DNA of 44,996 nucleotides from a phage. The position numbers and the translations under genes are program-made. The first letter of the stretch is position 1; every line of letters begins with the position of its first letter. The notes under the pieces are model-generated. The model was given only the letters and a program-made list of their open reading frames with translations. It was not told where the DNA came from and did not search any database. Where the stretch lies: sequence record PZ789432.1. One strand, given 5' to 3'. Positions 8,729 to 44,996 of this stretch are shown here, piece after piece.

Positions 8729-9191
8729 GGCAGCAGGATATACCATCAAGGAGGATGGTACTATCCTTAACCCTAAAGGTGTAATACTTAAACCGAGCCA
8801 ATCAGGAAGGAAATTAAAGTATTTATATGTAAGTTGGAGACATCAAGGAAGAAGAGTAACAGAGCTTGTACACAGATTGGTTGCTAAGAAGTACATACCC
8901 AACCCACACAGTTTACCAGAAATTCATCATAAAGACTTTAACCCTCTTAATTGTCATAAAGACAATCTTGAATGGACAGATGGTAAGACTAATTGTGAGT
9001 ATAGTTATGCAAGGGTAGAAGCTGCACTTGCACGTCATGCTACTTTATTGTCACCTGATGGCATTAAGTACGACATATTTAATGTTCGTAAATTCTGCCG
9101 CGAACATGGCCTCAATCCACCTAGTGTATTTGAGGTGCTTAGTGGTAAACGGAAGTCACATAAAGGGTGGACTATTTACCGGACACTATAG
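8703..9191 (+). CDS. HNH homing endonuclease
   Basis: 162 aa; EIHHKDFNPLNCHKDNLEW HNH motif. No in-frame ATG; starts at TTG 8703 six nt after AAGGAGG, inside the last 26 nt of the helicase gene. Confidence 0.8.
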   Translation: MLTKLKSFEAAGYTIKEDGTILNPKGVILKPSQSGRKLKYLYVSWRHQGRRVTELVHRLVAKKYIPNPHSLPEIHHKDFNPLNCHKDNLEWTDGKTNCEYSYARVEAALARHATLLSPDGIKYDIFNVRKFCREHGLNPPSVFEVLSGKRKSHKGWTIYRTL

Positions 9192-9196
9192 AAGAG
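9174..9196 (+). promoter_or_regulatory. phage RNAP promoter (atttaccggacactatagaagag)
   Basis: Consensus match; +1 G at 9191; overlaps the HNH stop codon. Confidence 0.75.
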
Positions 9197-9225
9197 ACAA
9201 CCTTTGACGATGAACAGGAGTTTTA

Positions 9226-9387
9226 ATGGAAATTATTAAACCAGTATTGAATATCGGTATTGAGATCCTATTCATGCTTGTGATCGCAGATTATGCTGCA
9301 CGATATGGATTCAAGAAAGCTGTGAAACTTATCGTTGCATCTGGTTTTCTTATGTCAATGTTCTTTATTGTAACACGCCTTATCTAG
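9226..9387 (+). CDS. hypothetical small membrane protein (53 aa)
   Basis: ATG 9226 with SD CAGGAG; hydrophobic throughout. Confidence 0.4.
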   Translation: MEIIKPVLNIGIEILFMLVIADYAARYGFKKAVKLIVASGFLMSMFFIVTRLI

Positions 9388-10703: not shown

Positions 10704-10908
10704 ATTAAGCAAGGTTTGCTCTTGCGGTAAAGGCTATCGCAGTCGTATTGATGGTAAGTGTGGACATTGTAGGTCTAAGAAAGAGGCTGCTTTGTTTTAC
10801 AAATACCACAATGAACTCTCCTATAACTACCCTCATCTAACACCTAATTCTTTATTAGGACTTGGTTATAGGGCTAAATACTTTGGAGCAATCTATGAAA
10901 TCAATTGA
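10690..10908 (+). CDS. hypothetical zinc-ribbon protein (72 aa)
   Basis: ORF track 10663..10908; ATG 10690 preferred (GAGG 6 nt upstream); CSCGKG...CGHC motif. Confidence 0.5.
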   Translation: MKTIKLSKVCSCGKGYRSRIDGKCGHCRSKKEAALFYKYHNELSYNYPHLTPNSLLGLGYRAKYFGAIYEIN

Positions 10909-11380
10909 TTGGAAGAAGGAAGCGGAAGGGCGCATCCTAGTTATGGACGCCGAGGCGAAAGGTCTACTTGATGCTATACGCTATGGTCATCGTGAAGACG
11001 TGCATATCATCTGCTGTATGGACCTGTTGACTACAGAGGAGTTTCTCTTCTTCGACCCGTATGAGATGCGTGACCCTGAAGCAAGAGAACGCCTGAAGGA
11101 ATGGGAAGGTCATCAAGATGGTGACTTGGTTGATGGTGTTAACTTCCTGAAGCATTGTGAAGCTATTGTGTCACAGAACTTCCTAGGGTATGACGGACTT
11201 CTCTTTGAGAAAGCATTCCCTGATATTTGGAAGGGCTTTAACTATACCGAGAAGCGCGGTAAGGGCAGACTCCGTGCTGACCTGTGTCCGGTGCGAGTCA
11301 TGGATACGCTGGTGATGAGTCGCCTGTTAAACCCAGATAAGACGCCTTCCTCCGCAAGCATATGCCAAAGGTATGGGTAA
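10895..11380 (+). CDS. DNA polymerase (Pol I family), fragment 1 of 4: 3'-5' exonuclease domain; frame-disrupted
   Basis: ORF track 10862..11380 (TTG), first ATG 10895; Exo motifs ILVMDAEAKGL and NFLGYDGLLFEKAF; VMDTLVMSRLL parallels T7 gp5 CIDTLVLSRLI. Homology continues in another frame. Confidence 0.85.
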   Translation: MKSIDWKKEAEGRILVMDAEAKGLLDAIRYGHREDVHIICCMDLLTTEEFLFFDPYEMRDPEARERLKEWEGHQDGDLVDGVNFLKHCEAIVSQNFLGYDGLLFEKAFPDIWKGFNYTEKRGKGRLRADLCPVRVMDTLVMSRLLNPDKTPSSASICQRYG

Positions 11381-11786
11381 CGTCGCCCCTCACTCAATTG
11401 AGGCGCACGGCATCCGTATAGGCCGCTATAAACCGGAGAACGAGGACTGGTCTAAACTAACTGACCACATGGTTCACCGTGTACGTGAGGACGTGGCGAT
11501 TGGTCGTGACTTGTTCCTCTGGCTCTTTAACGGGGAATGGATGGAGCATAAACGCCGTGGCGTGAATAAACGCACGGGCCTAGGCATTGAGACAGCCTTC
11601 CACATGGAGTCCATTGTGGCGCTGGAGATGAGCCGTCAGGCCGAGCGGGGGTTCCGTCTGGACATCGACAAGGCTTTGGCCCGATGCGAAGAATTGGACG
11701 CTAAGATTGATGAGACAGTCGCAGCGTTCCGCCCTCACATGCCTATGCGTATCAAGTCTAAACCTTTTAAACCGGAAGAAAAGTAA
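11373..11786 (+). CDS. DNA polymerase, fragment 2 of 4; frame-disrupted
   Basis: HSIEAHGIRIGRYK parallels T7 gp5 HALEAWGYRLGEMK; the frame is open upstream from 11331, so the shift lies near 11335..11372. Confidence 0.8.
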   Translation: MGNVAPHSIEAHGIRIGRYKPENEDWSKLTDHMVHRVREDVAIGRDLFLWLFNGEWMEHKRRGVNKRTGLGIETAFHMESIVALEMSRQAERGFRLDIDKALARCEELDAKIDETVAAFRPHMPMRIKSKPFKPEEK

Positions 11787-12445
11787 TGAAGTATGCCAAC
11801 GCGCAAATGAGTATGGAGCTAGCAACAATATACCTACTGTCCTTGACCCCTCACACTTTCTTCATGCCGAGAGACGAGGAGATCGCAAGACAGTATGGAG
11901 AGCTTGTCACTACTAAGTCTGGTGATTGGTCGGCTAGTGTTAAGAAAGACTTTCCTCACCTTAGAGGAAACCGTAATGACACGCCAAGCATCAAGTGGAT
12001 TGGCGCTTACTCGCCTGTTACTTTCGAAGAGATTCCCTTGGGTAACAGGGATACAGTTAAGCAAGTGCTCTATGATTATGGATGGAAAGGTGTTGAATTT
12101 AACGATACCGAGCAAGCGCATCTCGATGAGTACGGAGTGTTACCCAAACCTTGGAGTGGTAAGATAAATGAAAAGTCCCTCACTTTATGGCAAGAAAGAG
12201 CCGCACGTGAAGGTAAAACAGTACCTGATTGGTGCTTGGGTATCGCTGCATGGTACATACTCGTATCCCGTCGTGGTCAGATACTCAACCGTGGTGACGT
12301 TGAAGCCTTCAACGAGAAGGGGAACGTGGCCCTCGCAGGCTGGTGTACGAAAGTGTCGCGGCCTTGTACCTGTAGCATTCAACAAGGAGCTAGGAATCAA
12401 TGCGCAGCAATACTACGAGAGGTACGGATGTTGGCCTACGTCTGA
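11786..12445 (+). CDS. DNA polymerase, fragment 3 of 4; frame-disrupted
   Basis: Back in the frame of fragment 1; polymerase-like over its N-terminal two thirds. Confidence 0.7.
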   Translation: MKYANAQMSMELATIYLLSLTPHTFFMPRDEEIARQYGELVTTKSGDWSASVKKDFPHLRGNRNDTPSIKWIGAYSPVTFEEIPLGNRDTVKQVLYDYGWKGVEFNDTEQAHLDEYGVLPKPWSGKINEKSLTLWQERAAREGKTVPDWCLGIAAWYILVSRRGQILNRGDVEAFNEKGNVALAGWCTKVSRPCTCSIQQGARNQCAAILREVRMLAYV

Positions 12446-13448
12446 CAAAGATGACGGAGAGTGGCGTGTTCCAGCTGTTGCTATTAGTATTGGCACTTCT
12501 ACGTTCCGTATGCGTCATCGTAACGTGGTTAATATTCCTGCCCGTGGCTTGTATCCTTTACGTGATTTATTCATAGCAGGGAAAGGCAAGCTAATCCTTG
12601 GTTGTGACGGTGCAGGTCTTGAACTGCGTGTCCTGTCTCACTTCATGAATGACCCTGAGTACCAAGAGATTGTACTGCACGGTGATATTCATACGCATAA
12701 CCAGATGAAGGCTGGTCTTCCTAAGCGTGATATGGCGAAGACGTTTATATACGCCTTCCTCTATGGTTCTGGTATAGCCAACCTTGCAGCAGTCTGCGGT
12801 GTTACTGAGGAAGAAATGAAGGAAGTTGTGGCAAGATTCGAGATTGAACTACCGTCTCTTGCACGTCTTCGTGAGAATGTTATCGCACAAGGTAACAAGT
12901 TTGGCTACCTGCAAGCACCTGATGGGCATTGGGGTCGCATCCGCATGTCTGGTGGTGAACTTAAAGAGCACACGATGCTTAACGTATTACTCCAGATGAC
13001 TGGCTCTTTGTGTATGAAATATGCATTAGTCAAGGCATTTGCAGTAATGCGCAAGGAAGGTGTAGCTTTGGATGCTATGGGAAATCCTTGTGGTGTGGCT
13101 AACGTGCATGATGAAATCCAGATGGAAGTTCCTGAAGAGGAGGTCTTGTATCTTAACTACGACCTACCTTTCACCTTAGATGGGTTCGAAACAGAGAAGG
13201 CTGCTGTGAAAGCAGTTTTCGATGCAGAGGAGAAACGTGTTCATGTGGATTCTGAAGGACGTATGTGGTCTGCTGCAAACCTCGTTAGCGTTGATGCTGA
13301 TGCTGGTGTATTGCATTGCCAGCGCCGTTATCACCGTGCAGGTCATATCATTGCCGACGCCATGACTTGGGCAGGGCAGTATCTGAAGATGCGTTGCCCG
13401 ATGGCAGGAGAATATAAGATTGGCGCAAGCTGGAAGGAAACACACTGA
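12168..13448 (+). CDS. DNA polymerase, fragment 4 of 4: palm/fingers; frame-disrupted
   Basis: Motif A GCDGAGLELRVLSHF, TSTFRMRHRNVVNIP (T7 TGRATHAFPNLAQIP), KTFIYAFLYG, VHDEIQ. Reliable homology starts near 12430; the first ~260 nt of this ORF overlap fragment 3. Confidence 0.85.
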   Translation: MKSPSLYGKKEPHVKVKQYLIGAWVSLHGTYSYPVVVRYSTVVTLKPSTRRGTWPSQAGVRKCRGLVPVAFNKELGINAQQYYERYGCWPTSDKDDGEWRVPAVAISIGTSTFRMRHRNVVNIPARGLYPLRDLFIAGKGKLILGCDGAGLELRVLSHFMNDPEYQEIVLHGDIHTHNQMKAGLPKRDMAKTFIYAFLYGSGIANLAAVCGVTEEEMKEVVARFEIELPSLARLRENVIAQGNKFGYLQAPDGHWGRIRMSGGELKEHTMLNVLLQMTGSLCMKYALVKAFAVMRKEGVALDAMGNPCGVANVHDEIQMEVPEEEVLYLNYDLPFTLDGFETEKAAVKAVFDAEEKRVHVDSEGRMWSAANLVSVDADAGVLHCQRRYHRAGHIIADAMTWAGQYLKMRCPMAGEYKIGASWKETH

Positions 13449-16163: not shown

Positions 16164-16469
16164 ATGCCGACTATTAAATCTCGTTTAGTAGCAGACTATG
16201 TGTATGGTCGTGACTTAAAGTTAATGCAAGATTACTTTAAAGTAATCATCCTGCTGGATGGAGAAGTGTTTCACACTAAAACATTCACCCTTCCTGAATT
16301 GTTTGATTTAGGTTATTGGGGTTATACATATCAGGCCATAGCAGACAAGGTGCTACTCAGTGTATTAGAGGAGTGGCCTACATGCGACCAAACTTCGACT
16401 TCGGAGCTACAGTATCGGAAGACAATAACCTGTTGCTGTGGCCAACTGAAGGTAATAGAATCGCTTTAA
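16164..16469 (+). CDS. hypothetical protein (101 aa)
   Basis: ORF track; SD GGAG; 3' end overlaps the exonuclease start. Confidence 0.55.
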   Translation: MPTIKSRLVADYVYGRDLKLMQDYFKVIILLDGEVFHTKTFTLPELFDLGYWGYTYQAIADKVLLSVLEEWPTCDQTSTSELQYRKTITCCCGQLKVIESL

Positions 16470-17026
16470 TAGATGCTGACATGTTACCCTACATCGTAGG
16501 TTATACAATCAGTGACATGACTTATGTACGAGCCACAACTCGTGTTAAGTCAGGACAAGTCCCATCAATCAAAGATACACCTGAGTGTAAGCAAGCGTGT
16601 GACCGTGTGAACTCCTTGCTCAACTCTTGGGTGTATGCAGCAGAGTGTGATGCAGCTAAGTTATTCATGACGAAATCAGAAGCTAACTTCCGTGTTCGCC
16701 TAGCCTTCACCAAGCCTTACAAGGGTCAACGTAAGACCGAGAAGCCTCCGTTCTTCTATGAATTGCGAGAGCATCTCTTAGAGGTTCATGGTGCAATCTT
16801 GGCAGATGGAGAAGAGGCTGATGACCTCATGAGCATTGCACAATGGGACAGCCACCGCCGCTTCCAGCAAGCTACAGGTAACGAGTTCCCTATCGGTAGT
16901 CCAGAGCATAAAGCATTCTCTGATACTTGCATCGTTTCCTTAGATAAGGATTTGATGATTGTTCCCGGTTGGCATCTTCAGCCGGGTCAAGAGAAGAAAT
17001 GGGTTAGAGCCTATGGGTTGGCTTGA
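16382..17026 (+). CDS. 5'-3' exonuclease (T7 gp6-like), fragment 1 of 2; frame-disrupted
   Basis: ORF track 16316..17026 (non-ATG); ATG 16382 after GAGGAG; IALIDADMLPY, EEADDLMSIAQ and IVSLDKDLMIVPGW parallel T7 gp6. Confidence 0.85.
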   Translation: MRPNFDFGATVSEDNNLLLWPTEGNRIALIDADMLPYIVGYTISDMTYVRATTRVKSGQVPSIKDTPECKQACDRVNSLLNSWVYAAECDAAKLFMTKSEANFRVRLAFTKPYKGQRKTEKPPFFYELREHLLEVHGAILADGEEADDLMSIAQWDSHRRFQQATGNEFPIGSPEHKAFSDTCIVSLDKDLMIVPGWHLQPGQEKKWVRAYGLA

Positions 17027-17411
17027 GCTACGCCGTAAGGCTAATGGTCAGGTTAAAGACCTTAAAGGTGCTGGCCTCATGTTTCATTATGCACAGATGA
17101 TTATCGGTGATGATATTGATAACTATGCTGGCATACCTGGACGTGGTGCTAAATACGCCTATGATCTTCTCAAAGATTGTAAGACAGAGAAAGAGTTGTA
17201 CATGGCAGTGCTTGGTGCTTACAAGGCTAAGTTCGGACATGGACAAGTTAAGATTAAGAATTACCGAGGTGGTTATCGTATCGGCAAGGCTTTTGACCTG
17301 ATGCTCGAATGTGGTCGCCTAGCGCACATGGCAAGATTCAAAGGTGATATATGGCGAGCCGATAAGAACCCAATCTTGTGGGGAGATGATGCGGAATGGT
17401 TAGCAAATTAA
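16959..17411 (+). CDS. 5'-3' exonuclease, fragment 2 of 2; frame-disrupted
   Basis: MFHYAQMIIGDDIDNYAGIPGRG parallels T7 gp6 HLFQTIKGDITDGYSGIAGWG; the frame changes near 16990..17026. Confidence 0.8.
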   Translation: MFPVGIFSRVKRRNGLEPMGWLELRRKANGQVKDLKGAGLMFHYAQMIIGDDIDNYAGIPGRGAKYAYDLLKDCKTEKELYMAVLGAYKAKFGHGQVKIKNYRGGYRIGKAFDLMLECGRLAHMARFKGDIWRADKNPILWGDDAEWLAN

Positions 17412-21527: not shown

Positions 21528-23078
21528 ATGAAACAGAGCACAGATTTGGAGTATGGAGGTAAGCGGTCTAAGATACCTAAGCTATGGGAGAAGTTCTCCA
21601 CTAAACGTAGCTCTTTCCTTGATAGGGCGAAGCATTACTCCAAATTAACCTTGCCCTATCTGATGAATGACAAAGGTGATAACGAGACTTCGCAGAATGG
21701 ATGGCAAGGTGTAGGTGCTCAGGCAACTAATCATCTAGCCAACAAGCTAGCGCAAGTACTATTCCCTGCACAGCGTTCCTTCTTCCGTGTAGACTTAACT
21801 GCACAAGGTGAGAAGGTTCTTAATCAGCGTGGCCTGAAGAAGACAGAGCTAGCTACCATCTTCGCTCAAGTGGAAACACGGGCAATGAAAGAGTTAGAGC
21901 AACGTCAATTCCGGCCTGCTGTAGTAGAAGCATTTAAGCATCTTATTGTTGCTGGCAGCTGTATGCTATACAAGCCGAGCAAAGGTGCAATCAGTGCTAT
22001 CCCAATGCATCACTACGTAGTTAACCGTGACACCAATGGCGACCTGTTAGACATTATCTTACTGCAAGAGAAAGCCTTACGCACCTTTGACCCAGCTACA
22101 CGTGCTGTAGTAGAGGTTGGCCTGAAAGGTAAGAAGTGCAAGGAAGATGACAGCATTAAGCTGTACACACATGCTAAGTATCTTGGTGATGGATTTTGGG
22201 AACTCAAGCAGTCTGCTGATGATATCCCTGTGGGTAAGGTGAGTAAAATCAAATCAGAAAAGCTACCTTTCATCCCATTAACTTGGAAGCGAAGCTATGG
22301 TGAGGATTGGGGTCGCCCTCTTGCAGAGGATTACTCCGGTGATTTATTCGTTATCCAATTCTTATCTGAAGCGGTTGCCCGTGGTGCTGCGCTGATGGCA
22401 GATATCAAGTACCTGATTCGTCCTGGTGCTCAAACTGATGTTGACCACTTTGTTAACTCTGGCACTGGTGAGGTTGTCACTGGTGTAGAAGAAGACATCC
22501 ATATTGTACAGTTAGGTAAGTACGCAGACCTCACACCTATTAGCGCGGTTCTAGAGGTATACACTCGCCGTATCGGTGTTGTCTTCATGATGGAGACAAT
22601 GACACGCCGTGACGCCGAACGTGTTACTGCTGTAGAAATCCAGCGAGATGCGTTAGAGATTGAGCAGAACATGGGTGGTGTATACTCCCTCTTTGCTACT
22701 ACTATGCAATCGCCAGTAGCGATGTGGGGTCTGCTGGAGGCAGGGGAGTCCTTCACTAGTGACTTAGTGGACCCTGTGATTATCACAGGTATTGAAGCTT
22801 TAGGACGCATGGCTGAGTTGGATAAACTGGCTAACTTTGCTCAGTATATGTCACTGCCATTACAATGGCCTGAGCCTGTCCTAGCTGCTGTGAAATGGCC
22901 TGACTATATGGATTGGGTGCGTGGTCAAATCTCTGCTGAACTGCCGTTCCTTAAATCGGCTGAAGAGATGGCACAAGAACAGGAAGCACAGATGCAAGCA
23001 CAGCAAGCACAGATGCTTGAAGAAGGTGTGGCTAAGGCCGTGCCGGGTGTAATTCAACAAGAACTTAAGGAGGCGTAA
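21528..23078 (+). CDS. portal (head-to-tail connector) protein
   Basis: 516 aa; position before scaffold and capsid, and size, match T7 gp8-like portal. Confidence 0.88.
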   Translation: MKQSTDLEYGGKRSKIPKLWEKFSTKRSSFLDRAKHYSKLTLPYLMNDKGDNETSQNGWQGVGAQATNHLANKLAQVLFPAQRSFFRVDLTAQGEKVLNQRGLKKTELATIFAQVETRAMKELEQRQFRPAVVEAFKHLIVAGSCMLYKPSKGAISAIPMHHYVVNRDTNGDLLDIILLQEKALRTFDPATRAVVEVGLKGKKCKEDDSIKLYTHAKYLGDGFWELKQSADDIPVGKVSKIKSEKLPFIPLTWKRSYGEDWGRPLAEDYSGDLFVIQFLSEAVARGAALMADIKYLIRPGAQTDVDHFVNSGTGEVVTGVEEDIHIVQLGKYADLTPISAVLEVYTRRIGVVFMMETMTRRDAERVTAVEIQRDALEIEQNMGGVYSLFATTMQSPVAMWGLLEAGESFTSDLVDPVIITGIEALGRMAELDKLANFAQYMSLPLQWPEPVLAAVKWPDYMDWVRGQISAELPFLKSAEEMAQEQEAQMQAQQAQMLEEGVAKAVPGVIQQELKEA

Positions 23079-23773
23079 TGTCTTTCTCATTTACTGAACC
23101 GTCAACCACTCACCCTACTGCTGAAGAGGGTCCGGTAGAAACCAAGGAGGTAACAACTGATGCTGCTACTACTGATACTCCTGCTGACGCTGGCACTGCT
23201 GTACAAGATGACAATGCTGGTGCACAACCTACTGAAGACACCGGAGGAGAAGCTTCTGGACAGCCTTCAGAAAAAGGAGACAATGGCGGAGAGAATGGTG
23301 AACCTAAGCCAGATGATACCGCGACCGACACTGAGGAAGTGCAATACTTCTTCGGAGAACATGAAGTAACAGTAGACATCCCACAGGATGTAACTGACAG
23401 CCTTAAAGAGAAAGGCATTGATGCCAAGCAGGTTGCCAAGGAACTCTATTCCAAAGGTGGCAAGTTTGAACTGTCAGATGCAACCAAGCAGAAATTGTAT
23501 GATGCTTTTGGCAAGTTTGCGGTAGATGCTTACCTGTCAGGTCTAAAGGCTCAAAATGAAGCCTTCTTCCTGAAAGAAGCCAACGCAGCTAAAGAGTTGG
23601 AAGCAGCTAACACCCAACGCTTCTCTGATGTTTCTAAGGAAATTGGTGGCGAAGAAGGTTGGTCCCGTCTTGAGGAGTGGGCACTTGAAGCGCTGTCTGA
23701 TGACGAACTCAACGGCATTCAATGCGGTGATGGAATCTGGCAACCAGTACCTCCAGCAGTACGCTGTGCGTGA
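23078..23773 (+). CDS. capsid scaffolding protein, fragment 1 of 2; frame-disrupted
   Basis: SD AAGGAGG; acidic, Ala/Thr/Glu-rich N-terminus; reading frame is lost near 23712. Confidence 0.75.
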   Translation: MSFSFTEPSTTHPTAEEGPVETKEVTTDAATTDTPADAGTAVQDDNAGAQPTEDTGGEASGQPSEKGDNGGENGEPKPDDTATDTEEVQYFFGEHEVTVDIPQDVTDSLKEKGIDAKQVAKELYSKGGKFELSDATKQKLYDAFGKFAVDAYLSGLKAQNEAFFLKEANAAKELEAANTQRFSDVSKEIGGEEGWSRLEEWALEALSDDELNGIQCGDGIWQPVPPAVRCA

Positions 23774-23999
23774 ACTGGAAAGTCGCCGGAAGGCTGCACA
23801 GGGTGATGACAAACCAAACCTGATTGAACCCTCTGCACCTGCTGCTGCGTCTGAAGATAATGGCCCACTCTCTCGTGAGCAGTACCTGCGTGAGATGATG
23901 ACTCTTAGCTCTCGCTTCGGTACAGACAAGAAAGCTGCTGCTGAGTATCAGGCTAAACTGGATGCTCGCCGTCGTGCTGGTATGGCTCGCGGTCTGTAA
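23628..23999 (+). CDS. capsid scaffolding protein, fragment 2 of 2; frame-disrupted
   Basis: Removing one G from aacGGcattc at ~23711 joins ...ALSDDELN to AFNAVMESGNQYLQQYAV... giving a ~307-aa protein. Confidence 0.7.
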   Translation: MFLRKLVAKKVGPVLRSGHLKRCLMTNSTAFNAVMESGNQYLQQYAVRELESRRKAAQGDDKPNLIEPSAPAAASEDNGPLSREQYLREMMTLSSRFGTDKKAAAEYQAKLDARRRAGMARGL

Positions 24000-32210: not shown

Positions 32211-35200
32211 ATGGAACAAGATATTAAGACTAATTGGGCTGGATATGTCCAGTCTACTCCTGAGCCGTTTTCTATTGAGGCGGCTCCGGTATCGGCTCCT
32301 ACGATACGCCAGCGTAATGAGTTACAAGAGCAAGTTCTTGAAGCTAAAGCGGATGCTGATATCTTAGGTGCTGTAGGTGCTGCCTTCCAGAATGAGTGGT
32401 TGGCATTCGGAGGCAAGCGGTGGTATGACCGTGCCACTGCTGATTTCACACCTCAACCAGACTTCGAGATACAACCTGAGCAACGTGAAGCACTACGTTT
32501 CAAATATGGTACAGATATGATGCAGACAATCACTGAGGGTGTTCGTTCTGAGGATGAATTGAACTTCCGTATTCAGAATGCTGATGAAGACCTTGAGCGC
32601 AATAAGCGCATTGCTCAGGCTGGCTGGGTTGGCTCTGTGGCGACGATTGGCGCTGCTGTGCTTGACCCTGTGGGATGGGTTGCCTCTATTCCAACCGGTG
32701 GTGCCGCTAAAGTTGGACTCGTAGGCCGTGCTGTGCGTGGCGCTATCGCCGCTGGCGTAAGTAATGCCGCTATTGAATCCATATTGGTCCAAGGTGACAT
32801 GACTCGTGATTTAGATGACATTATGGTAGCACTAGGCTCCGGTATGGCTATGGGTGGCGTTATTGGAGCTGTAGCGCGTGGTAGGGCCACTAAGCTCAGT
32901 GAGCAAGGAGATGACAGGGCTGCGAGCATTGTGCGCAGTGCAGACGCAGGGGACCGCTATGTGCGTGCTGTTGCTGATGATAGTATCGGTGCGATGCGTG
33001 TTAAGGGTGAAGAGGTACTCACTGAGGGTGCATTTGATATCTCTAGCAAAGGTGAAGATTTGCTGAAAACCCTACAGCGGGAAGGTAATGCAATTGATAT
33101 GACCCCTCGCCGCTGGGCCGGAACTCTGTCTGCCCTTGGGACTGTCGTGCACTCCTCTCATGATACTAGTGTTCGTGGCCTCGGTGCTCGCCTGTTTGAG
33201 TCTCCGCAAGGTTTAGGTATGCAAAAGGCATCTGCCAGTCTTATGCAGAATACCAACTTGAATCGACTGAAGTCTGCTGATATGAACCGTTTCAATGACG
33301 GGTTTGACTTATGGCTCAAAGAAAATAATATCAATCCAGTTGCAGGCCATACTAACTCTCACTATGTGCAGCAATATAATGAGAAGGTATGGGAAGCTGT
33401 ACGCATCGGTATGGATGAGTCTACGCCTAAGTCTATCCGCATGGCAGCAGAGGGGCAGCAAGCTATGTACCGTGAAGCCTTAGCTTTAAGGAAGCGCTCC
33501 GGTGAAGCTGGCTTTGAAAACATTAAAGCAGATAATAAGTATATGCCTGATATCTTTGACACTATGAAAGCTCGCCGTCAATTTGATAGGATAGGAAAGG
33601 ATATAGATAAAGAAGATATCATTGAGTTATTCTCTCGTGCTTATCAGAACGGCGCTCGTAAAATTCCAAAAGAAGTAGCGGATGAAATTGCACGAGCACA
33701 AGTAAACCGCGTTGCTGGATGCCACCTTGACCGGACAGCTATGAGCTTTGAAAAGGCTATGTCTGGTCAAACCAAAGCAGAATATGAAGCACTAATGCGC
33801 AAAGCAGGCTTTAGTGATGAAGAGATTGAAAAGATGGTAGAAGCTCTGGATAATAAAGAAACCAGAGATAATATCTCTAACCGAGCTAAGATGAGTTTAG
33901 GCTTAGATGTCACTCAAGAGTACAATGGCATTCGTATGCGTGACTTTATGAACACTAACGTGGAAGAGTTAACAGATAACTACATGAAGGAAGCGGCAGG
34001 TGGTGCTGCCTTGGCTCGTCAAGGTTTCTCTACCTATCAGGCTGCACTTAATGCAATTGATCTTGTAGAGCGAAATGCACGAAATGCAGCTAAAGATACA
34101 AAAGCACACGCACAATTTGAAGCGGAGTCGGCTAAGATCCGTCAATCAGAGCCTGATTACAAGAGGGCACAAGAGAAGATTGAAGAGTTAAAGAAGCGAC
34201 TTAAATTGAAAGAGAAAGATGAAGCAGCTGGTCTGGCTATTGATGAAGAAATCCGTCAGATGCGAGAAGGGCTTCGCTTGATTATGGGTAAATCTATCGA
34301 TTCAAACCCACAAGATTTGTCTACTAAAATGCTGCGTCGTGGGCGTGACATTACAGGTGTACTTCGCTTAGGTCAGATGGGCTTCGCACAGCTAGGTGAA
34401 CTTGCTAACTTCATGGGTGAGTTTGGTATTGCTGCCACCACTATGGCTTTAGGTAAGCAATTCCGCTTCACCTCTAAGGCGTTGCGTAATGGCGATGGCT
34501 TCTTTCGAGATAAGAATTTAGCTGAGGTTGAGCGAATGGTAGGTTACATTGGTGAAGACAACTGGCTAACAACTAAGGGTGCGCGTCCAGATGAGTTTGG
34601 TGATGTAACCACAGTGCGAGGGATGATGGCCCATTTTGACCAGTCCATGAACTCTATACGACGTGCTCAGACAAACCTATCCCTCTTCCGCATGGCACAG
34701 GGTTCTCTGGAGCGAATGACCAATAGGCAAATAGCTTTGTCTTTCATTGACCATCTTGAAGGCAAGAAGATTATTCCTCAGAAGAAACTGGAGGAACTTG
34801 GTCTTACTCAGGAGTTCATGACTAACCTACAGAAGCACTATGATGCTAACTCTAAAGGCTCTGGCTTGCTTGGCTTTGATACAATGCCTTATGCCATGGG
34901 TGAAACTTTAGCTAATGCTATTCGTCGTAAGTCAGGTCTAATTATCCAACGTAACTTCATTGGTGATGAAGGTATCTGGATGAACAAAGCACTAGGTAAG
35001 ACATTTGCACAGCTTAAGTCATTCTCTCTTGTATCTGGTGAGAAGCAATTTGGTCGAGGGATTCGCCACGATAAAATTGGTCTTGCTAAGAAGACAGCTT
35101 ATGGTTTTGCTTTGGGTTCAATAGTGTATGCGGCAAAAGCCTATGTGAACTCTATTGGTCGAGAAGACCAAGATGAATATTTGGAAGAGAAGTTATCGCC

Positions 35201-35534
35201 TAAAGGGTTGGCCTTTGGTGCAATGGGTATGATGAGTACAACTGCTGTATTTAGTCTAGGTGGAGATTTCTTAGGTGGCCTAGGTGTTCTACCTTCTGAG
35301 TTAGTACAATCCCGTTATGAGGCTGGCTTTCAGACTAAGGGTTTGATAGACCAAATACCACTAGTAGGTGTTGGTCAAGATGCATATCGTTTAGCAGATT
35401 CTATAACTAAATACGCAGAGGGCGATACAGAAGGTGTAGATGTGGCACGTAGGGCTTTACGCTTAGTGCCTCTAGCTAATGTAATAGGAATCCAGAACGC
35501 ATTGCGTTATGGCTTAGATGAACTGGAGGATTAA
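32211..35534 (+). CDS. large internal virion (core) protein, T7 gp16-like by position
   Basis: 1107 aa; SD GGAGG; last of three internal proteins between tail tube and tail adaptor genes. Confidence 0.75.
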   Translation: MEQDIKTNWAGYVQSTPEPFSIEAAPVSAPTIRQRNELQEQVLEAKADADILGAVGAAFQNEWLAFGGKRWYDRATADFTPQPDFEIQPEQREALRFKYGTDMMQTITEGVRSEDELNFRIQNADEDLERNKRIAQAGWVGSVATIGAAVLDPVGWVASIPTGGAAKVGLVGRAVRGAIAAGVSNAAIESILVQGDMTRDLDDIMVALGSGMAMGGVIGAVARGRATKLSEQGDDRAASIVRSADAGDRYVRAVADDSIGAMRVKGEEVLTEGAFDISSKGEDLLKTLQREGNAIDMTPRRWAGTLSALGTVVHSSHDTSVRGLGARLFESPQGLGMQKASASLMQNTNLNRLKSADMNRFNDGFDLWLKENNINPVAGHTNSHYVQQYNEKVWEAVRIGMDESTPKSIRMAAEGQQAMYREALALRKRSGEAGFENIKADNKYMPDIFDTMKARRQFDRIGKDIDKEDIIELFSRAYQNGARKIPKEVADEIARAQVNRVAGCHLDRTAMSFEKAMSGQTKAEYEALMRKAGFSDEEIEKMVEALDNKETRDNISNRAKMSLGLDVTQEYNGIRMRDFMNTNVEELTDNYMKEAAGGAALARQGFSTYQAALNAIDLVERNARNAAKDTKAHAQFEAESAKIRQSEPDYKRAQEKIEELKKRLKLKEKDEAAGLAIDEEIRQMREGLRLIMGKSIDSNPQDLSTKMLRRGRDITGVLRLGQMGFAQLGELANFMGEFGIAATTMALGKQFRFTSKALRNGDGFFRDKNLAEVERMVGYIGEDNWLTTKGARPDEFGDVTTVRGMMAHFDQSMNSIRRAQTNLSLFRMAQGSLERMTNRQIALSFIDHLEGKKIIPQKKLEELGLTQEFMTNLQKHYDANSKGSGLLGFDTMPYAMGETLANAIRRKSGLIIQRNFIGDEGIWMNKALGKTFAQLKSFSLVSGEKQFGRGIRHDKIGLAKKTAYGFALGSIVYAAKAYVNSIGREDQDEYLEEKLSPKGLAFGAMGMMSTTAVFSLGGDFLGGLGVLPSELVQSRYEAGFQTKGLIDQIPLVGVGQDAYRLADSITKYAEGDTEGVDVARRALRLVPLANVIGIQNALRYGLDELED

Positions 35535-36497
35535 TGAGTTATACTTTCACAGAACATATAGCCAACGGTACGCAAGTAACCTATCCCTTTAGCTTTGCTG
35601 GTAGGGATAAAGGTTATCTTCGTGCCTCAGATGTGATAGTGGAGATCTCTTCAAGGTAACACTTGGATTGAGGTTACATCTGGCTGGCAACTAACTGGCA
35701 CGCACCAGATTACTTTTGATGTAGCACCAGTTGCAGGTTTGAAGTTCCGTATTCGAAGGGAAGTACAAAAGGAGTATCCATACGCTGAGTTTGACCGTGG
35801 TGTTACCTTGGATATGAAGTCTTTAAATGGTTCTTTCATTCATATACTGGAGATTACACAGGAGTTACTTGACGGGTTTTATCCAGAAGGATACTTCATT
35901 AAACAGAATGTAAGCTGGGGCGGCAATAAGATTACTGATTTGGCTGATGGCACAAATCCGGGAGATGCAGTAAACAAAGGGCAGCTTGATGCCATTGACA
36001 AGAAGCATACAGATTGGAATGCCAAACAGGACATTGAGATTGCTGGCCTTAAGGCTGGTATGACTTCTGGTATTGCGCACAGAACTGTTCCTTGGTACAC
36101 GATAGCCCAAGGTGGTGAGATTTCCGTAAAACCACCTTATGAATTTCAAGATGCACTAGTTTTCCTTAATGGGGTATTGCAGCACCAAATTGTAGGCGCA
36201 TACTCTATAAGCAACAACACTATCACTTTCGCAGAGTCGCTTGTGGCGGGTACAGAGGTGTATGTGCTGATTGGTAGTCGTGTGGCTACATCTGAACCTA
36301 ATATTCAGTTAGAGTTGAACTTTGACTTAGTAGAAGGCCAACAAGTAGTACAGATTGGCTCTGCATTTAAGTACATTGAGGTCTACCTTGATGGATTATT
36401 ACAACCTAAACTTGCTTATCAGGTAGACGGTGACATTGTTACTTTCTCAGAGGGAGTGCCAGAATGCCGGATGACTGCTAAGATTATCACAGCATAA
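35534..36497 (+). CDS. tail fiber/tailspike adaptor (T7 gp17 N-terminal-domain-like); frame-disrupted
   Basis: ATG 35534 gives MSYTFTEHIANGTQVTYPFSFAGRDKGYLRASDVIVEISSR* (ends 35659). Homology continues in another frame from ~35640 (NTWIEVTSGWQLTG...; ORF track 35739..36497). One indel near 35648..35656 restores ~321 aa. Confidence 0.7.
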
Positions 36498-39334: not shown

Positions 39335-39628
39335 ATGGCTAAATATGGTACTAAAGGTTCTGTTACGGGTCAGGCTTTTCGAGTGAAAGCAGTACAAACT
39401 ATTGCAACGGCAATCCCGATGCCTGTTGTTAAAGAAGTAGACCTTAAGAGTAAAGATCACCCTATCAACATCAAACATTTATCAGGTAAACAGAAAGGTG
39501 CAATGGTTGCTCTTGAGAAAAGTGACACAACCTTACATATTGCTGTTGCACGTGGTAGTGAACCAACAGACCCTTGGGATGTAACTGGCATGGACTCGCT
39601 CGCTGTCACTCCAGCAGGTGGAGAATAA
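39335..39628 (+). CDS. hypothetical protein (97 aa), paralog B of a tandem pair
   Basis: ORF track; SD AAGGAGG; LSGKQKGAMVALEKSDTTLHIAVARG parallels KSGKQKGAMVCLEVEGGVLKIAIAVDG upstream. Confidence 0.7.
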   Translation: MAKYGTKGSVTGQAFRVKAVQTIATAIPMPVVKEVDLKSKDHPINIKHLSGKQKGAMVALEKSDTTLHIAVARGSEPTDPWDVTGMDSLAVTPAGGE

Positions 39629-39985
39629 TGCTTAACAAATACTTCAAGCGCCGTGAGTTCGCTTGCCGTTGTGGGTGCGGTACATCCACTGTTGATGCTG
39701 AATTACTACAGGTAGTCACAGATGTGCGTGAGCACTTTGGTTCGTACCTGTAGTAATCACTTCGGGGCATCGCTGTGCTAAGCACAATGCCAACGTAGGA
39801 GGAGCTAAGAAGGTTCCATGCATCTTACTGGTAAGGCTGCTGACATTAAGGTATCTAGGTGTCTGGTACCAATCGGAGGTACGTACAGTACCTCTGCTAA
39901 TAAATACCCTGATAAGTATGGCATTGGTGCTTATACCTACTTTTACCCATATCGACGTTACGAGACAACGAGTGCACGATGGTAA
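39628..39985 (+). pseudogene. endolysin, zinc peptidase M15-type, with about four frame disruptions in this sequence
   Basis: Successive frames give MLNKYFKRREFACRCGCG...VREHFGS / PVVITSGHRCAKHNANVGGAKK / SMHLTGKAADIKV...GIGAYTY / FTHIDV / ...SARW*, together the M15 hallmark. Each break is at a short G or T run. Confidence 0.75.
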
Positions 39986-40094
39986 GATGTGTTGAATGGT
40001 GTGAACGCATGGTTGCCAAAGCATCCAGAGGATGGCAACTATGATGACTGGAAGAACTACTCTGAATTGTTAGCTCAATGGAAAGGGAGATGCA

Positions 40095-40190
40095 ATGAAA
40101 AAGCTGTTTAAGTCTAAGAAGGTTGTAGGTGCACTGGTTGCACTGGTTATTGCACTTGTTTCTGTAGGTCTTGGCGTAGACCTTGGCTGA
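40095..40190 (+). CDS. hypothetical small membrane protein (31 aa)
   Basis: ATG 40095 after AAGGGAG; MKKLFKSKKVVGALVALVIALVSVGLGVDLG. Confidence 0.35.
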   Translation: MKKLFKSKKVVGALVALVIALVSVGLGVDLG

Positions 40191-40324
40191 AGGTACGGAA
40201 GGTTCCTGTCACTGACGTGGTCTGCCAAGTGATCACCTGTGAATAAGGTGCTTGAAGTGGTGGCAGGTCTTATTGGCCTGCTGCTTGCCGCTAAGAAGAA
40301 GCAAGGAAGAAAAGGAGGCACAAA

Positions 40325-40426
40325 GTGAAGCGAATCATGCTAGCGACAATCCTGCTGATTGGTTCGCTGACCACTTCCGGGTGTCAGACAGGCGTTACCA
40401 GAGAGTCCAATGGTGAAACCGTCTGA
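40325..40426 (+). CDS. small lipoprotein-like ORF (candidate o-spanin-like)
   Basis: GTG 40325 six nt after AGGAGG (or ATG 40337); MLATILLIGSLTTSGCQTG has a signal peptide with lipobox-like TSGC. No intact i-spanin ORF is visible. Confidence 0.35.
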   Translation: MKRIMLATILLIGSLTTSGCQTGVTRESNGETV

Positions 40427-40564
40427 AGCCGACGCTGACGGCAGTTTACGAGGTAGACGATAAGGTCTGCTTCAGTAAGCCTGACGCTACAAAATTAGGT
40501 TTGTATATTCTTTCGCTAGAACGCGGATATAATTAATACATAGCTTTATGTATCAGTGTCTTAC

Positions 40565-40588
40565 GATTTACTGGACACTATAGAAGAG
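40565..40588 (+). promoter_or_regulatory. phage RNAP promoter upstream of the tailspike genes (gatttactggacactatagaagagg)
   Basis: Exact consensus; +1 G at 40583. Confidence 0.8.
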
Positions 40589-40667
40589 GTAAGATAGCGC
40601 CGTTCTTTTGAGCGGCCTATTACTAGCCAATCTTCATAGGGAGGGTTGGAAAGTAATAGGAGATAGC

Positions 40668-41792
40668 ATGGCTAAATTAACCAAACCTAAGACTGAAGGA
40701 ATCTTGCATAAAGGACAATCTTTGTATGAGTACCTTGATGCGAGAGTTTTAACATCAAAGCCGTTTGGTGCTGCAGGTGACGCCACTACTGATGATACGG
40801 AGGTTATAGCTGCTTCACTAAACTCTCAAAAAGCTGTCACAGTCTCAGATGGTGTATTCTCTAGCTCTGGTATTAATAGTAATTACTGTAACTTAGACGG
40901 CAGGGGTAGTGGAGTACTAAGTCACCGTTCAAGTACAGGTAACTACTTAGTATTTAACAATCTACGTGCAGGTCGCTTAAGTAATATTACGGTAGAAAGT
41001 AATAAGGCGACTGATACAACTCGGGGACAGCAGGTATCTCTTGCTGGTGGAAGTGATGTTACTGTAAGTGACGTTAACTTCTCAAACGTTAAAGGTACTG
41101 GTTTCAGTTTAATAGCATACCCTAATGGTGCGCCACCTAATGGGCTTATGATTAAAGGTATTCGAGGTAGCTACTCCGGCTATGCTACTAATAAGGCAGC
41201 CGGATGCGTACTTGCTGACTCCTCAGTTAACTCCCTAATAGATAACGTCATTGCTAAGAACTACCCTCAGTTCGGAGCCGTAGAGTTGAAAGGTACAGCC
41301 AGTTATAACATAGTCAGTAATGTTATAGGGACAGATTGCCAGCATGTAACTTACAACGGCACTGAAGGGCCAATAGCTCCTTCTAATAACCTTATCAAGG
41401 GTGTGATGGCTAATAACCCTAAGTATGCAGCGGTTGTTGCAGGCAAAGGAAGTACGAACTTAATCTCAGACGTGCTCGTAGATTACTCAACTTCTGATGC
41501 TAGGCAGGCTCATGGTGTTACCGTAGAGGGGTCTGATACCGTCATAAATAATGTGCTTATGTCAGGATGTGATGGTACTAACTCTTTAGGACAAAGTCAG
41601 ACTGCTACAATTGCGCGCTTTATAGGTACAGCTAATAACAACTATGCGTCTGTATTTCCTAGCTACAGTGCTACAGGTGTTATTACTTTCGAATCCGGCT
41701 CTACCCGTAACTTCGTAGAGGTAAAGCACCCTGGCAGGAGAAATGACCTTCTCAGTTCTGCTAGTACTATTGACAGGTGCAGCTACTATTGA
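40668..41792 (+). CDS. tailspike 1 (beta-helix polysaccharide depolymerase, K5-lyase-like), N-terminal fragment; frame-disrupted
   Basis: ORF track 40608..41792 (TTG); ATG 40668 after AGGAG; beta-helix-like repeats; frame lost near 41775. Confidence 0.8.
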   Translation: MAKLTKPKTEGILHKGQSLYEYLDARVLTSKPFGAAGDATTDDTEVIAASLNSQKAVTVSDGVFSSSGINSNYCNLDGRGSGVLSHRSSTGNYLVFNNLRAGRLSNITVESNKATDTTRGQQVSLAGGSDVTVSDVNFSNVKGTGFSLIAYPNGAPPNGLMIKGIRGSYSGYATNKAAGCVLADSSVNSLIDNVIAKNYPQFGAVELKGTASYNIVSNVIGTDCQHVTYNGTEGPIAPSNNLIKGVMANNPKYAAVVAGKGSTNLISDVLVDYSTSDARQAHGVTVEGSDTVINNVLMSGCDGTNSLGQSQTATIARFIGTANNNYASVFPSYSATGVITFESGSTRNFVEVKHPGRRNDLLSSASTIDRCSYY

Positions 41793-42567
41793 TGGCACTA
41801 ATAATAGTAACGTAGTGCACGCACCTGCCTTAGGGCAGTACATCGGTAGTATGTCAGGTAGGTTCGAATGGCGGATTAAGTCCATGTCACTCCCTTCAGG
41901 CGTTCTTACTTCTGCTGATAAGTACAGAATGCTTGGGGATGGTGCTGTGTCATTAGCTGTAGGTGGGGGCACTTCTTCTCAAGTTCGCCTATTTACTTCT
42001 GATGGTACTTCTCGGACAGTGTCCCTCACCAACGGTAACGTGCGTCTTTCTACCAGTAGCGCAGGCTATTTGCAGTTAGGTGCTGATGCAATGACCCCAG
42101 ATAGTACTGGTACATACGCATTAGGTTCCGCCAGTCGAGCATGGTCTGGCGGTTTTACTCAAGCAGCATTCACTGTTACCTCAGATGCTCGGTGTAAAAC
42201 AGAACCTCTTACTATCTCAGATGCCTTACTGGATGCTTGGTCTGAAGTTGACTTTGTGCAGTTTCAGTATTTGGATCGTGTTGAGGAGAAAGGTGCAGAC
42301 TCAGCTAGATGGCACTTTGGCATCATCGCTCAGCGAGCTAAGGAGGCTTTCGAACGTCACGGTATAGATGCACATCGCTACGGCTTCTTGTGCTTCGACA
42401 GTTGGGAGGATGTATACGAGGAAGATGCAAATGGCTCTCGTAAACTGATTACACCAGCAGGTTCCCGCTATGGTATTCGTTACGAGGAAGTACTGATATT
42501 AGAGGCTGCGTTGATGCGGCGGACTATTAAGCGTATGCAGGAAGCACTAGTTGCCATTCCTAAGTAA
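41743..42567 (+). CDS. tailspike 1, C-terminal fragment with intramolecular chaperone (peptidase S74-like) domain; frame-disrupted
   Basis: C-terminus ...DARCKTEPLTISDALLDAWSEVDFVQFQYLD...ARWHFGIIAQ...YGFLCFD... parallels the autocleaving chaperone domain of K1F endosialidase (...GERKTEPVVFDDAFLDAWGDV...ARIHFGVIAQ...YAVLCYD). Joined length ~633 aa. Confidence 0.8.
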   Translation: MTFSVLLVLLTGAATIDGTNNSNVVHAPALGQYIGSMSGRFEWRIKSMSLPSGVLTSADKYRMLGDGAVSLAVGGGTSSQVRLFTSDGTSRTVSLTNGNVRLSTSSAGYLQLGADAMTPDSTGTYALGSASRAWSGGFTQAAFTVTSDARCKTEPLTISDALLDAWSEVDFVQFQYLDRVEEKGADSARWHFGIIAQRAKEAFERHGIDAHRYGFLCFDSWEDVYEEDANGSRKLITPAGSRYGIRYEEVLILEAALMRRTIKRMQEALVAIPK

Positions 42568-42652: not shown

Positions 42653-44365
42653 ATGCTTCAAAGATTAAGTGCTTACTTGGTGAAGTACAAGAGTAAACTA
42701 ACAGGTACTATTGAGCGCCTGCTATCTGATAAACTATCGGATACAATAGACGTTGCGGATTTTGGAGTTAATCCCTCTTCTAATGACAACAGGCAAGCCC
42801 TTCAAGCTGCATTCAATGCGGTCAGATTGCTAGGCGGTGGTACTGTATCAGTCACTAAAGCTGGCGAATATAAACTCAGTGGTACTGTTGAGATATTTGC
42901 TAATACACACTTCAAGGTTGCTAAAGGTGTAACATTTGTACGTGACTACGAAACAGGAGATACGCTATTCAGATTATCACAAGGGCAAGCTAGTAATGTA
43001 ACAGTCAGTGGAGGTATCTATGAAGGCAATGGTCACACTAAGGGAGATACACCTTTTGTAGTATTTGCATCTACTAGTAATAATGATTTGAAGTTTGAAG
43101 GCATAACAGTTAACAATGTAGTGGACTACCACGCCATAGATTTAGCAGATTGGAACAACGTAGTTATTCGTGATTGTAAATTCCTAGGGTTTAAGAATAC
43201 AGGCAGTCGTAACTTCTCAGAGGCTATACAGTTAGACCCAGGTCTTATTACAGTTGGTCACTATGTACAGTCAAGCGGTATGCTGGTGGAGAATTGCTAT
43301 GCTGGTCCAAACCCAGAATCAGGGTTTGGGGGTTATGGTGCACTAATCGGAAATCACGCCTCAGCTTATGGTGTACAGGACAACAATATCCGTATCTTGA
43401 ATTGCACTACAGATGGTGCTCTCTTTGCAGGTGTACGTGTATTTAACTGGAAAAACTGGACAGTACGTGGTTGTACCTTTAGAAACTCTAATGCAAGAGG
43501 TGTTCATGTTACACCTGTCTCCTCTCAAACTAAACCGCAAGGAACTCGACAAGGTAGTGTTGTAGATTGTACTTTTGATGGCGTAAGAACACCAGTGCTA
43601 ATTGCTGCACCATCTTGGCCTTTTACAGATATTAGTGACATTTGGCATGACCATATTGAAATTTCTAATAATACTATGATCCTCACAGAGGATGTATCCT
43701 ATGGTGTAGATGCAAGGTGGTGTAAGAATTTAATTGTAAAAGGTAACACTGGTTCTGGCGGCTTAGGGTTAATCGGTTTACGCTTTGGAACAAAGTACCA
43801 CATCGAAGGTAATACTTGGGAAAACGGAAGAGGTAGTGGGATTTGGTTAGGTGAGTCTGATGCTACTACATTCATTGGTACTGGCTTATCTGGAGAAGGT
43901 ATACTTAGTCGTAATATCCTCTCTAAATTAGGGCAATATGGTATTCATGTAAACTGCAAGGCTGGCGGTCTAGTGATTAAAGCTAATAATATGAAGGAAG
44001 TATCTACAGCTGAAGCAGGTAGGCACTTCATTAGCATAGACACAGGAGCTAACAACATCCTAGTAGAAGGTAATATTGGAGTAGATGGAGAAAGCCCTAA
44101 CAAGCCAAGCTTGGGTATTCGTGTTACTTCTTCTTGTTCCAATATTAAACTCATTGGCAATGATTGCTATGGTACACAGGCGCCTCAGAATAACCAAGGG
44201 GTTGGTTCTAGTACGGTGATTGTTTATGGACTAAATGGCAATCCTACAACTTTAGGCGTAGGTGCACCTGTTGGCTCTTTAGCAACTGATATCAATGGGT
44301 CTGGTGGTAGTACATTGTACGTTAAAGAATCTGGTACATCTGCTCAAGGTTGGGTTGCAAAGTAG
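42653..44365 (+). CDS. tailspike 2 (pectate-lyase-fold beta-helix depolymerase)
   Basis: 570 aa; SD AAGGAGG; N-terminal DVADFGVNPSSNDNRQALQAAFNA...GGGTV typical of pectate-lyase-type tailspikes, followed by beta-helix-like repeats. Confidence 0.85.
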   Translation: MLQRLSAYLVKYKSKLTGTIERLLSDKLSDTIDVADFGVNPSSNDNRQALQAAFNAVRLLGGGTVSVTKAGEYKLSGTVEIFANTHFKVAKGVTFVRDYETGDTLFRLSQGQASNVTVSGGIYEGNGHTKGDTPFVVFASTSNNDLKFEGITVNNVVDYHAIDLADWNNVVIRDCKFLGFKNTGSRNFSEAIQLDPGLITVGHYVQSSGMLVENCYAGPNPESGFGGYGALIGNHASAYGVQDNNIRILNCTTDGALFAGVRVFNWKNWTVRGCTFRNSNARGVHVTPVSSQTKPQGTRQGSVVDCTFDGVRTPVLIAAPSWPFTDISDIWHDHIEISNNTMILTEDVSYGVDARWCKNLIVKGNTGSGGLGLIGLRFGTKYHIEGNTWENGRGSGIWLGESDATTFIGTGLSGEGILSRNILSKLGQYGIHVNCKAGGLVIKANNMKEVSTAEAGRHFISIDTGANNILVEGNIGVDGESPNKPSLGIRVTSSCSNIKLIGNDCYGTQAPQNNQGVGSSTVIVYGLNGNPTTLGVGAPVGSLATDINGSGGSTLYVKESGTSAQGWVAK

Positions 44366-44741: not shown

Positions 44742-44996
44742 GCCCTCGCCGGGTTGCCCCCATATGGGGTAGATCGGCGGTTGACCTAGGAATTGGGCTG
44801 GGCTGGTCCGTCTTCGACGGGTGGGCGAGGGCTTGCCGAGGTCTGCTCTTAGTGGCTGCACAAGGAGAACGCCTAGGAAGCGCTAGGGCACGCCTTAGTA
44901 TTGGACAAGGTGATTGCCTTAGTGAAGCCTCTTAGTGCATTCCTTAGGTCATTCAGGGCGTTTATGAGGGATTGACAGGGTGGATGGGTGTGGGCT
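44742..44996. repeat. right direct terminal repeat
   Basis: Same orientation copy of 1..257; preceded by extra ctcgccctcgccctcgcc units that the truncated left copy does not show. Confidence 0.85.

Follow-up and report, generated by a model that had tools for sequence, protein, structure and literature searches.

A K5 lyase tailspike gene divided by one extra base in a K1-5-like phage record, almost certainly an artefact of an error-rich sequence

In the phage sequence record PZ789432.1, the gene for a K5 lyase tailspike is written as two open reading frames (ORFs) lying in different frames, and the question arises whether this split reflects the biology of the phage or the quality of its record. 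The window considered here is the whole stretch of DNA analyzed, 44,996 nucleotides in length. The preliminary description of this locus had placed at 41743-41792 a single extra base that divides one tailspike, and both the letters and the two ORFs are as it described them. The letters of 41758-41792 read gct agt act att gac Agg tgc agc tac tat tga, in which the capital marks the extra base. According to the ORF list and its translation, the ORF in the original frame (40608-41792) has the C-terminal end ...LSSASTIDRCSYY followed by the stop, while the ORF in the next frame (41743-42567) starts with MTFSVLLVLLTGAATIDGTNNSN and contains ...GAATIDGTNNSN.... As written, the lyase gene thus consists of a product of 374 amino acids (aa), counted from the ATG at 40668, and one of 274 aa, counted from the ATG at 41743. 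The features of this region are as follows.

40668..41774, plus strand: codons 1-369 of the K5 lyase tailspike (gp46/KflA homologue), with the MAKLTKP peptide and the beta-helix lyase domain (tblastn with K1-5 gp46 residues 1-369, 98.4% identity; alignment with 2X3H)
41775..41775, plus strand: extra A, a single-base insertion private to the window, shifting the frame by +1 (MAFFT gap in K1-5, K5 and EEc4; five comparators; 34 of 34 records)
41790..41792, plus strand: premature TGA that closes the original frame once five wrong codons (RCSYY) have been read (ORF list and translation)
41776..42183, plus strand: codons 370-505 of the K5 lyase, which complete the mature spike at its C-terminus, with ...FTVTS505 as the last residues (chain end of 2X3H; coordinates from the restored ORF)
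42184..42567, plus strand: C-terminal intramolecular chaperone domain (Peptidase_S74), residues 506-632 and the stop codon (PF13884; 3GUD and 3GW6)
42653..44365, plus strand: second tailspike, intact, 570 aa, beta-helix, N-terminus MLQRLSAYLVK (ORF; Pfam Beta_helix; 98.6% identity to EEc4_0055)

The window is a complete genome of a K1-5-like Vectrevirus, since it carries direct terminal repeats: bases 1-251 recur at 44742-44992, the copies being identical at 250 of 251 positions. The one mismatch, between copies that are expected to be identical, is a further hint of base-call error. Upon megablast comparison of 40608-42567 with the phages of GenBank, 99 records were found, the best with about 97.7% identity (VEc3, the K1-5 gene gp46 annotated as "K5 lyase", and Y10025.2, each aligned over 1959 nt of the 1960-nt query), and other parts of the window show 96-97% identity to Vectrevirus genomes. 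A collection of 15 billion proteins held no exact match to the proteins of the window, the intact second tailspike included. Outside the tailspike region, about 500 extra bases are present after the primase/helicase gene (8725-9226), with an HNH-type endonuclease-like ORF carrying the motif IHHKDFNPLNCHKDNLEW; this ORF has no counterpart at that spot in EEc4 or K1-5, and is probably a homing endonuclease insertion.

When the gene was aligned by MAFFT to its counterparts in Y10025.2 (K5 lyase), K1-5 (gp46) and EEc4, the base found only in the window was identified as A 41775, in the context GAC-A-GGT. It has no counterpart in any of the five genomes used for the whole-genome census. In a search with a 71-nt query across the site, the base was present in none of 34 phage records: full-length matches span 70 nt, and two partial, 69-nt matches span 68 nt. 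A 33-mer bearing the insertion does not occur in IMG/VR, nor a 24-mer bearing it in JGI metagenomes or GTDB genomes, and the intact 23-mer lacking the extra A was found in four IMG/VR contigs. Thus, the claim that one extra base splits a single tailspike ORF is borne out by its absence from all relatives checked. The lyase is a single 1899-nt coding sequence (CDS) in K1-5, K5, 6948 and KMB14 (632 aa in K1-5 and K5). The downstream frame stays open through 263 conserved codons, far beyond what chance would give.

Deletion of A 41775 restores an ORF of 1899 nt, starting at ATG 40668 and encoding 632 aa, close to the approximately 633 aa first estimated for the single tailspike. This ATG is the true start, and the TTG at 40608, with which the listed ORF opens, was dismissed. 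The restored protein begins with MAKLTKPKTEG, of which the heptapeptide MAKLTKP is the reported site by which the K5 lyase docks on the adaptor gp37 (PMC6872550). K1-5 gp46 starts with this peptide too, and its gene likewise lies between the lysis genes and that of the second tailspike. Toward KflA of coliphage K5A (Y10025.2; structure 2X3H) and K1-5 gp46 (AAG59821), the DNA identity of 97.7% holds over the whole gene, but KflA and gp46 are each encoded by one uninterrupted ORF, whereas the window gene is two ORFs with the extra base at codon 369/370.

The domain borders were set by comparison with solved structures. In a phmmer search of the PDB, restored residues 1-505 matched residues 38-542 of the 2X3H chain with 1060 bits, so that this structure covers residues 1-505 at about 98% identity with scattered substitutions only, ...LLSSASTIDGAATIDGT... 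included. Lyase function is predicted from this identity of about 98% to the characterized KflA. The mature chain of 2X3H ends in ...FTVTS505 and the alignment with the chaperone 3GUD opens at residue 505, placing the cleavage serine at the junction and the chaperone domain at residues 506-632. PDB entry 3GUD covers residues 505-623 and 3GW6 residues 453-582, and the chaperone structure 4UW8 aligns as well. Peptidase_S74 (PF13884) was detected at residues 147-207 of the downstream ORF (E = 4.8e-15; 56 bits against a cut-off of 22). A chaperone of this family is also carried by the endosialidase of K1F, gp12 of phi29 and pb1 of T5; the domain in the window is an ordinary member, only out of frame.

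The C-terminal chaperone domain proposed from the ORFs is therefore confirmed by the Pfam hit and the 3GUD and 3GW6 alignments, but the border drawn for it, at a split between beta-helix body and chaperone, has to be moved. The frame is lost at codon 369/370, which leaves 136 residues up to the autocleavage serine, and the chaperone begins only at residue 506. Besides the chaperone, residues 370-505, which form the mature spike's C-terminal stalk, lie in the downstream piece, and the 374-aa product as written lacks both. In KflA, the region of residues 370-505 includes a knob-like domain (PMC6116203).

The state of the codons downstream of the break was examined in the restored frame. Against five relatives, dN/dS was 0.14-0.24 downstream and 0.10-0.16 upstream of the break; none of the 263 downstream codons is a stop, and the MAFFT alignment contains no further indel in the lyase gene downstream of the break. 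Purifying selection is thus still acting on these codons in the restored frame. An old, decaying pseudogene is ruled out by the downstream dN/dS together with the lack of further lesions.

The lyase is one among a number of genes broken in this record. All annotated CDS of K1-5 and EEc4 were translated and compared with the window by tblastn, and several conserved proteins mapped to at least two frames with contiguous coordinates. A total of 10 frame breaks in seven proteins were identified by this test. The same test gave no break in the control genomes K1-5, LI10P3, 6948 and KMB14, and one in EEc4. In the whole-genome census against five relatives, about 20 frameshifting insertions were private to the window; within coding sequence, the census turned up no frameshifting deletion private to it. 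Insertion positions were taken from gene-by-gene alignments, interruptions were confirmed by the ORF lists, and the detail of the endolysin came from a four-way alignment. The genes affected are listed below.

10895-13448: DNA polymerase, insertions A 11339, T 11784, AGCT 11901 (4 nt) and G 12319; five ORF fragments; insertions absent from five relatives
16382-17411: exonuclease, insertion T 17005; two overlapping ORFs
23078-23999: scaffolding protein, insertion A 23711; two overlapping ORFs
35534..36497, plus strand: tailspike adaptor gp37, insertion A at about 35645; ORFs of 41 aa and 252 aa
Endolysin gp43: compared with the KMB14/6948 allele, eight insertion events within about 230 bp, adding 13 bases; three frames
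gp44 and gp45: insertions at about 40189, 40205, 40388 and 40421, with one or two extra bases per gene; split
K5 lyase: insertion A 41775; 374 aa and 274 aa

The stretch 39628-40430, with the endolysin gp43, gp44 and gp45, is dense in errors. In the gene for gp36 (internal virion protein), insertions of +1 and +2 lie 22 nt apart at 33715-33740 and compensate each other relative to the five comparators; the two may be errors, or they may be natural variants.

The identification of gp37 as the tailspike adaptor follows earlier studies (PMC6872550, PMC5380687). Since no lytic phage could survive on a DNA polymerase in five pieces and with breaks in its scaffold, exonuclease, adaptor and endolysin, the insertions in these genes must be errors, and by this base rate A 41775, being of the same kind, is most likely an error too. 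The first account of the locus was right on the single gene and the extra base, but in treating the split as a matter of the tailspike it overlooked about 20 further private insertions, that is, a quality problem of the whole record.

Taken together, the split is very likely an artefact of base calling or assembly in an error-rich record, and the true gene is most likely one ORF of 632 aa. This reading is supported by the private nature of the insertion, by the many essential genes broken in the same manner, by the one-sided profile of insertions and by the clean control genomes, and also by the purifying selection still acting on the downstream lyase codons. The position of the inserted A outside any homopolymer stands against it, homopolymer indels being the classic type of error of 454, Ion Torrent or Nanopore sequencing. 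With all of this considered, A 41775 is almost certainly an error and not a mutation. From the intact gene, a single 632-aa precursor would be made, as in K1-5 and K5A, the C-terminal chaperone domain of which would aid trimerization and folding and would then be cleaved off after Ser505. With a mass of about 52 kDa, the mature spike would bind gp37 via MAKLTKP, and its beta-helix domain would degrade the K5 capsule polysaccharide by beta-elimination. If the gene is intact, peptides of the mature lyase should span ...STIDGAATIDGT..., across the site of the break.

The alternative next in order is that A 41775 is real, a very recent mutation inactivating the lyase after growth on a non-K5 host by means of the second tailspike, with the lyase free of selection, and representing an early step of the type of loss known for K1E. 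Biologically such a knockout is possible, because the lyase is dispensable, a frameshift is located nearby in EEc4, and K1E, by published accounts, has lost its lyase. The dispensability on non-K5 hosts follows from the presence of an intact second tailspike. This second spike is a 570-aa beta-helix protein in the window, in contrast to the K1 endosialidase of K1-5. In phage 6948 an intact lyase gene is followed by a second-tailspike gene equal in length to that of the window. The N-terminus MLQRLSAYLVK of the second tailspike resembles MIQRLGSSLVK, the docking undecapeptide of the K1-5 endosialidase.

EEc4 (ON210145.1), a member of the same genus with a second tailspike 98.6% identical to that of the window, has its lyase gene likewise split by a single-base indel. 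The lesion differs, however: one nucleotide is missing from a CCC run, some 70 nt upstream of 41775, instead of one being added, and this is the sole frame break in the EEc4 genome, whereas nine or more further breaks are present in the window. The EEc4 lyase extends over 40497-42394 of its record, is annotated as two CDS, and has its deletion at the site corresponding to window 41704-41706. Either a homopolymer error or a genuine knockout may account for this deletion. In K1E, also a Vectrevirus, the lyase was truly lost by truncation and only a remnant is left (PMC5380687), in contrast to the full, conserved gene with one extra base in the window. A very recent event would also fit the lack of downstream decay. 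Against a real mutation, at least 10 equally private insertions are present in essential genes, which is impossible in a viable phage, so that the base rate points to error. Moreover, the adaptor gp37, which the surviving tailspike would require, is broken in the same way, and A 41775 occurs in no other public sequence (34 records, IMG/VR, JGI metagenomes and GTDB). A real knockout is therefore unlikely. The wider proposal, that a real recent knockout and an independent EEc4 frameshift together show two-spike Vectreviruses repeatedly starting to lose their first tailspike, along the route thought to have given K1E, is a shade less likely again.

That the break is decoded as written, either by programmed +1 frameshifting or transcriptional slippage or as a truncated lyase complemented by a trans-acting stalk-and-chaperone protein, is highly improbable, even though both frames are open across the overlap 41725-41789, the rare codon AGG directly follows the insertion, and ATG 41743 could start the downstream ORF. 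The stretch 41725-41792 lacks a shift-prone codon pair, a Shine-Dalgarno-like stimulator placed as in prfB, and any homopolymer run. No slippery motif is present; neither can GAC in the P site pair anew with ACA, nor UAU with AUU. The two-frame arrangement is kept in none of the 34 relatives, all of which have a single ORF. On these grounds programmed frameshifting and slippage were rejected. For the two-protein form, the 374-aa product would still be without residues 370-505 of the mature spike. An intramolecular chaperone folds the C-terminal domain adjoining it, which speaks against action in trans; work by Schwarzer and colleagues from 2007 is said to be the basis for the view that this chaperone acts in cis only.

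The split is thus almost certainly an artefact of an error-rich record and no real biological feature. Annotation of the sequence as written would turn the lyase into a truncated "tail fiber" followed by a "hypothetical protein" that is spurious, and host-range prediction from the record might miss its specificity for the K5 capsule. DNA polymerase, exonuclease, scaffold, adaptor and endolysin would likewise be mis-annotated as fragments. The record is usable for host-range or depolymerase work only after resequencing or frame-aware correction. If the extra base were real, it would add a minor case of tailspike loss under relaxed selection to the one already known from K1E.
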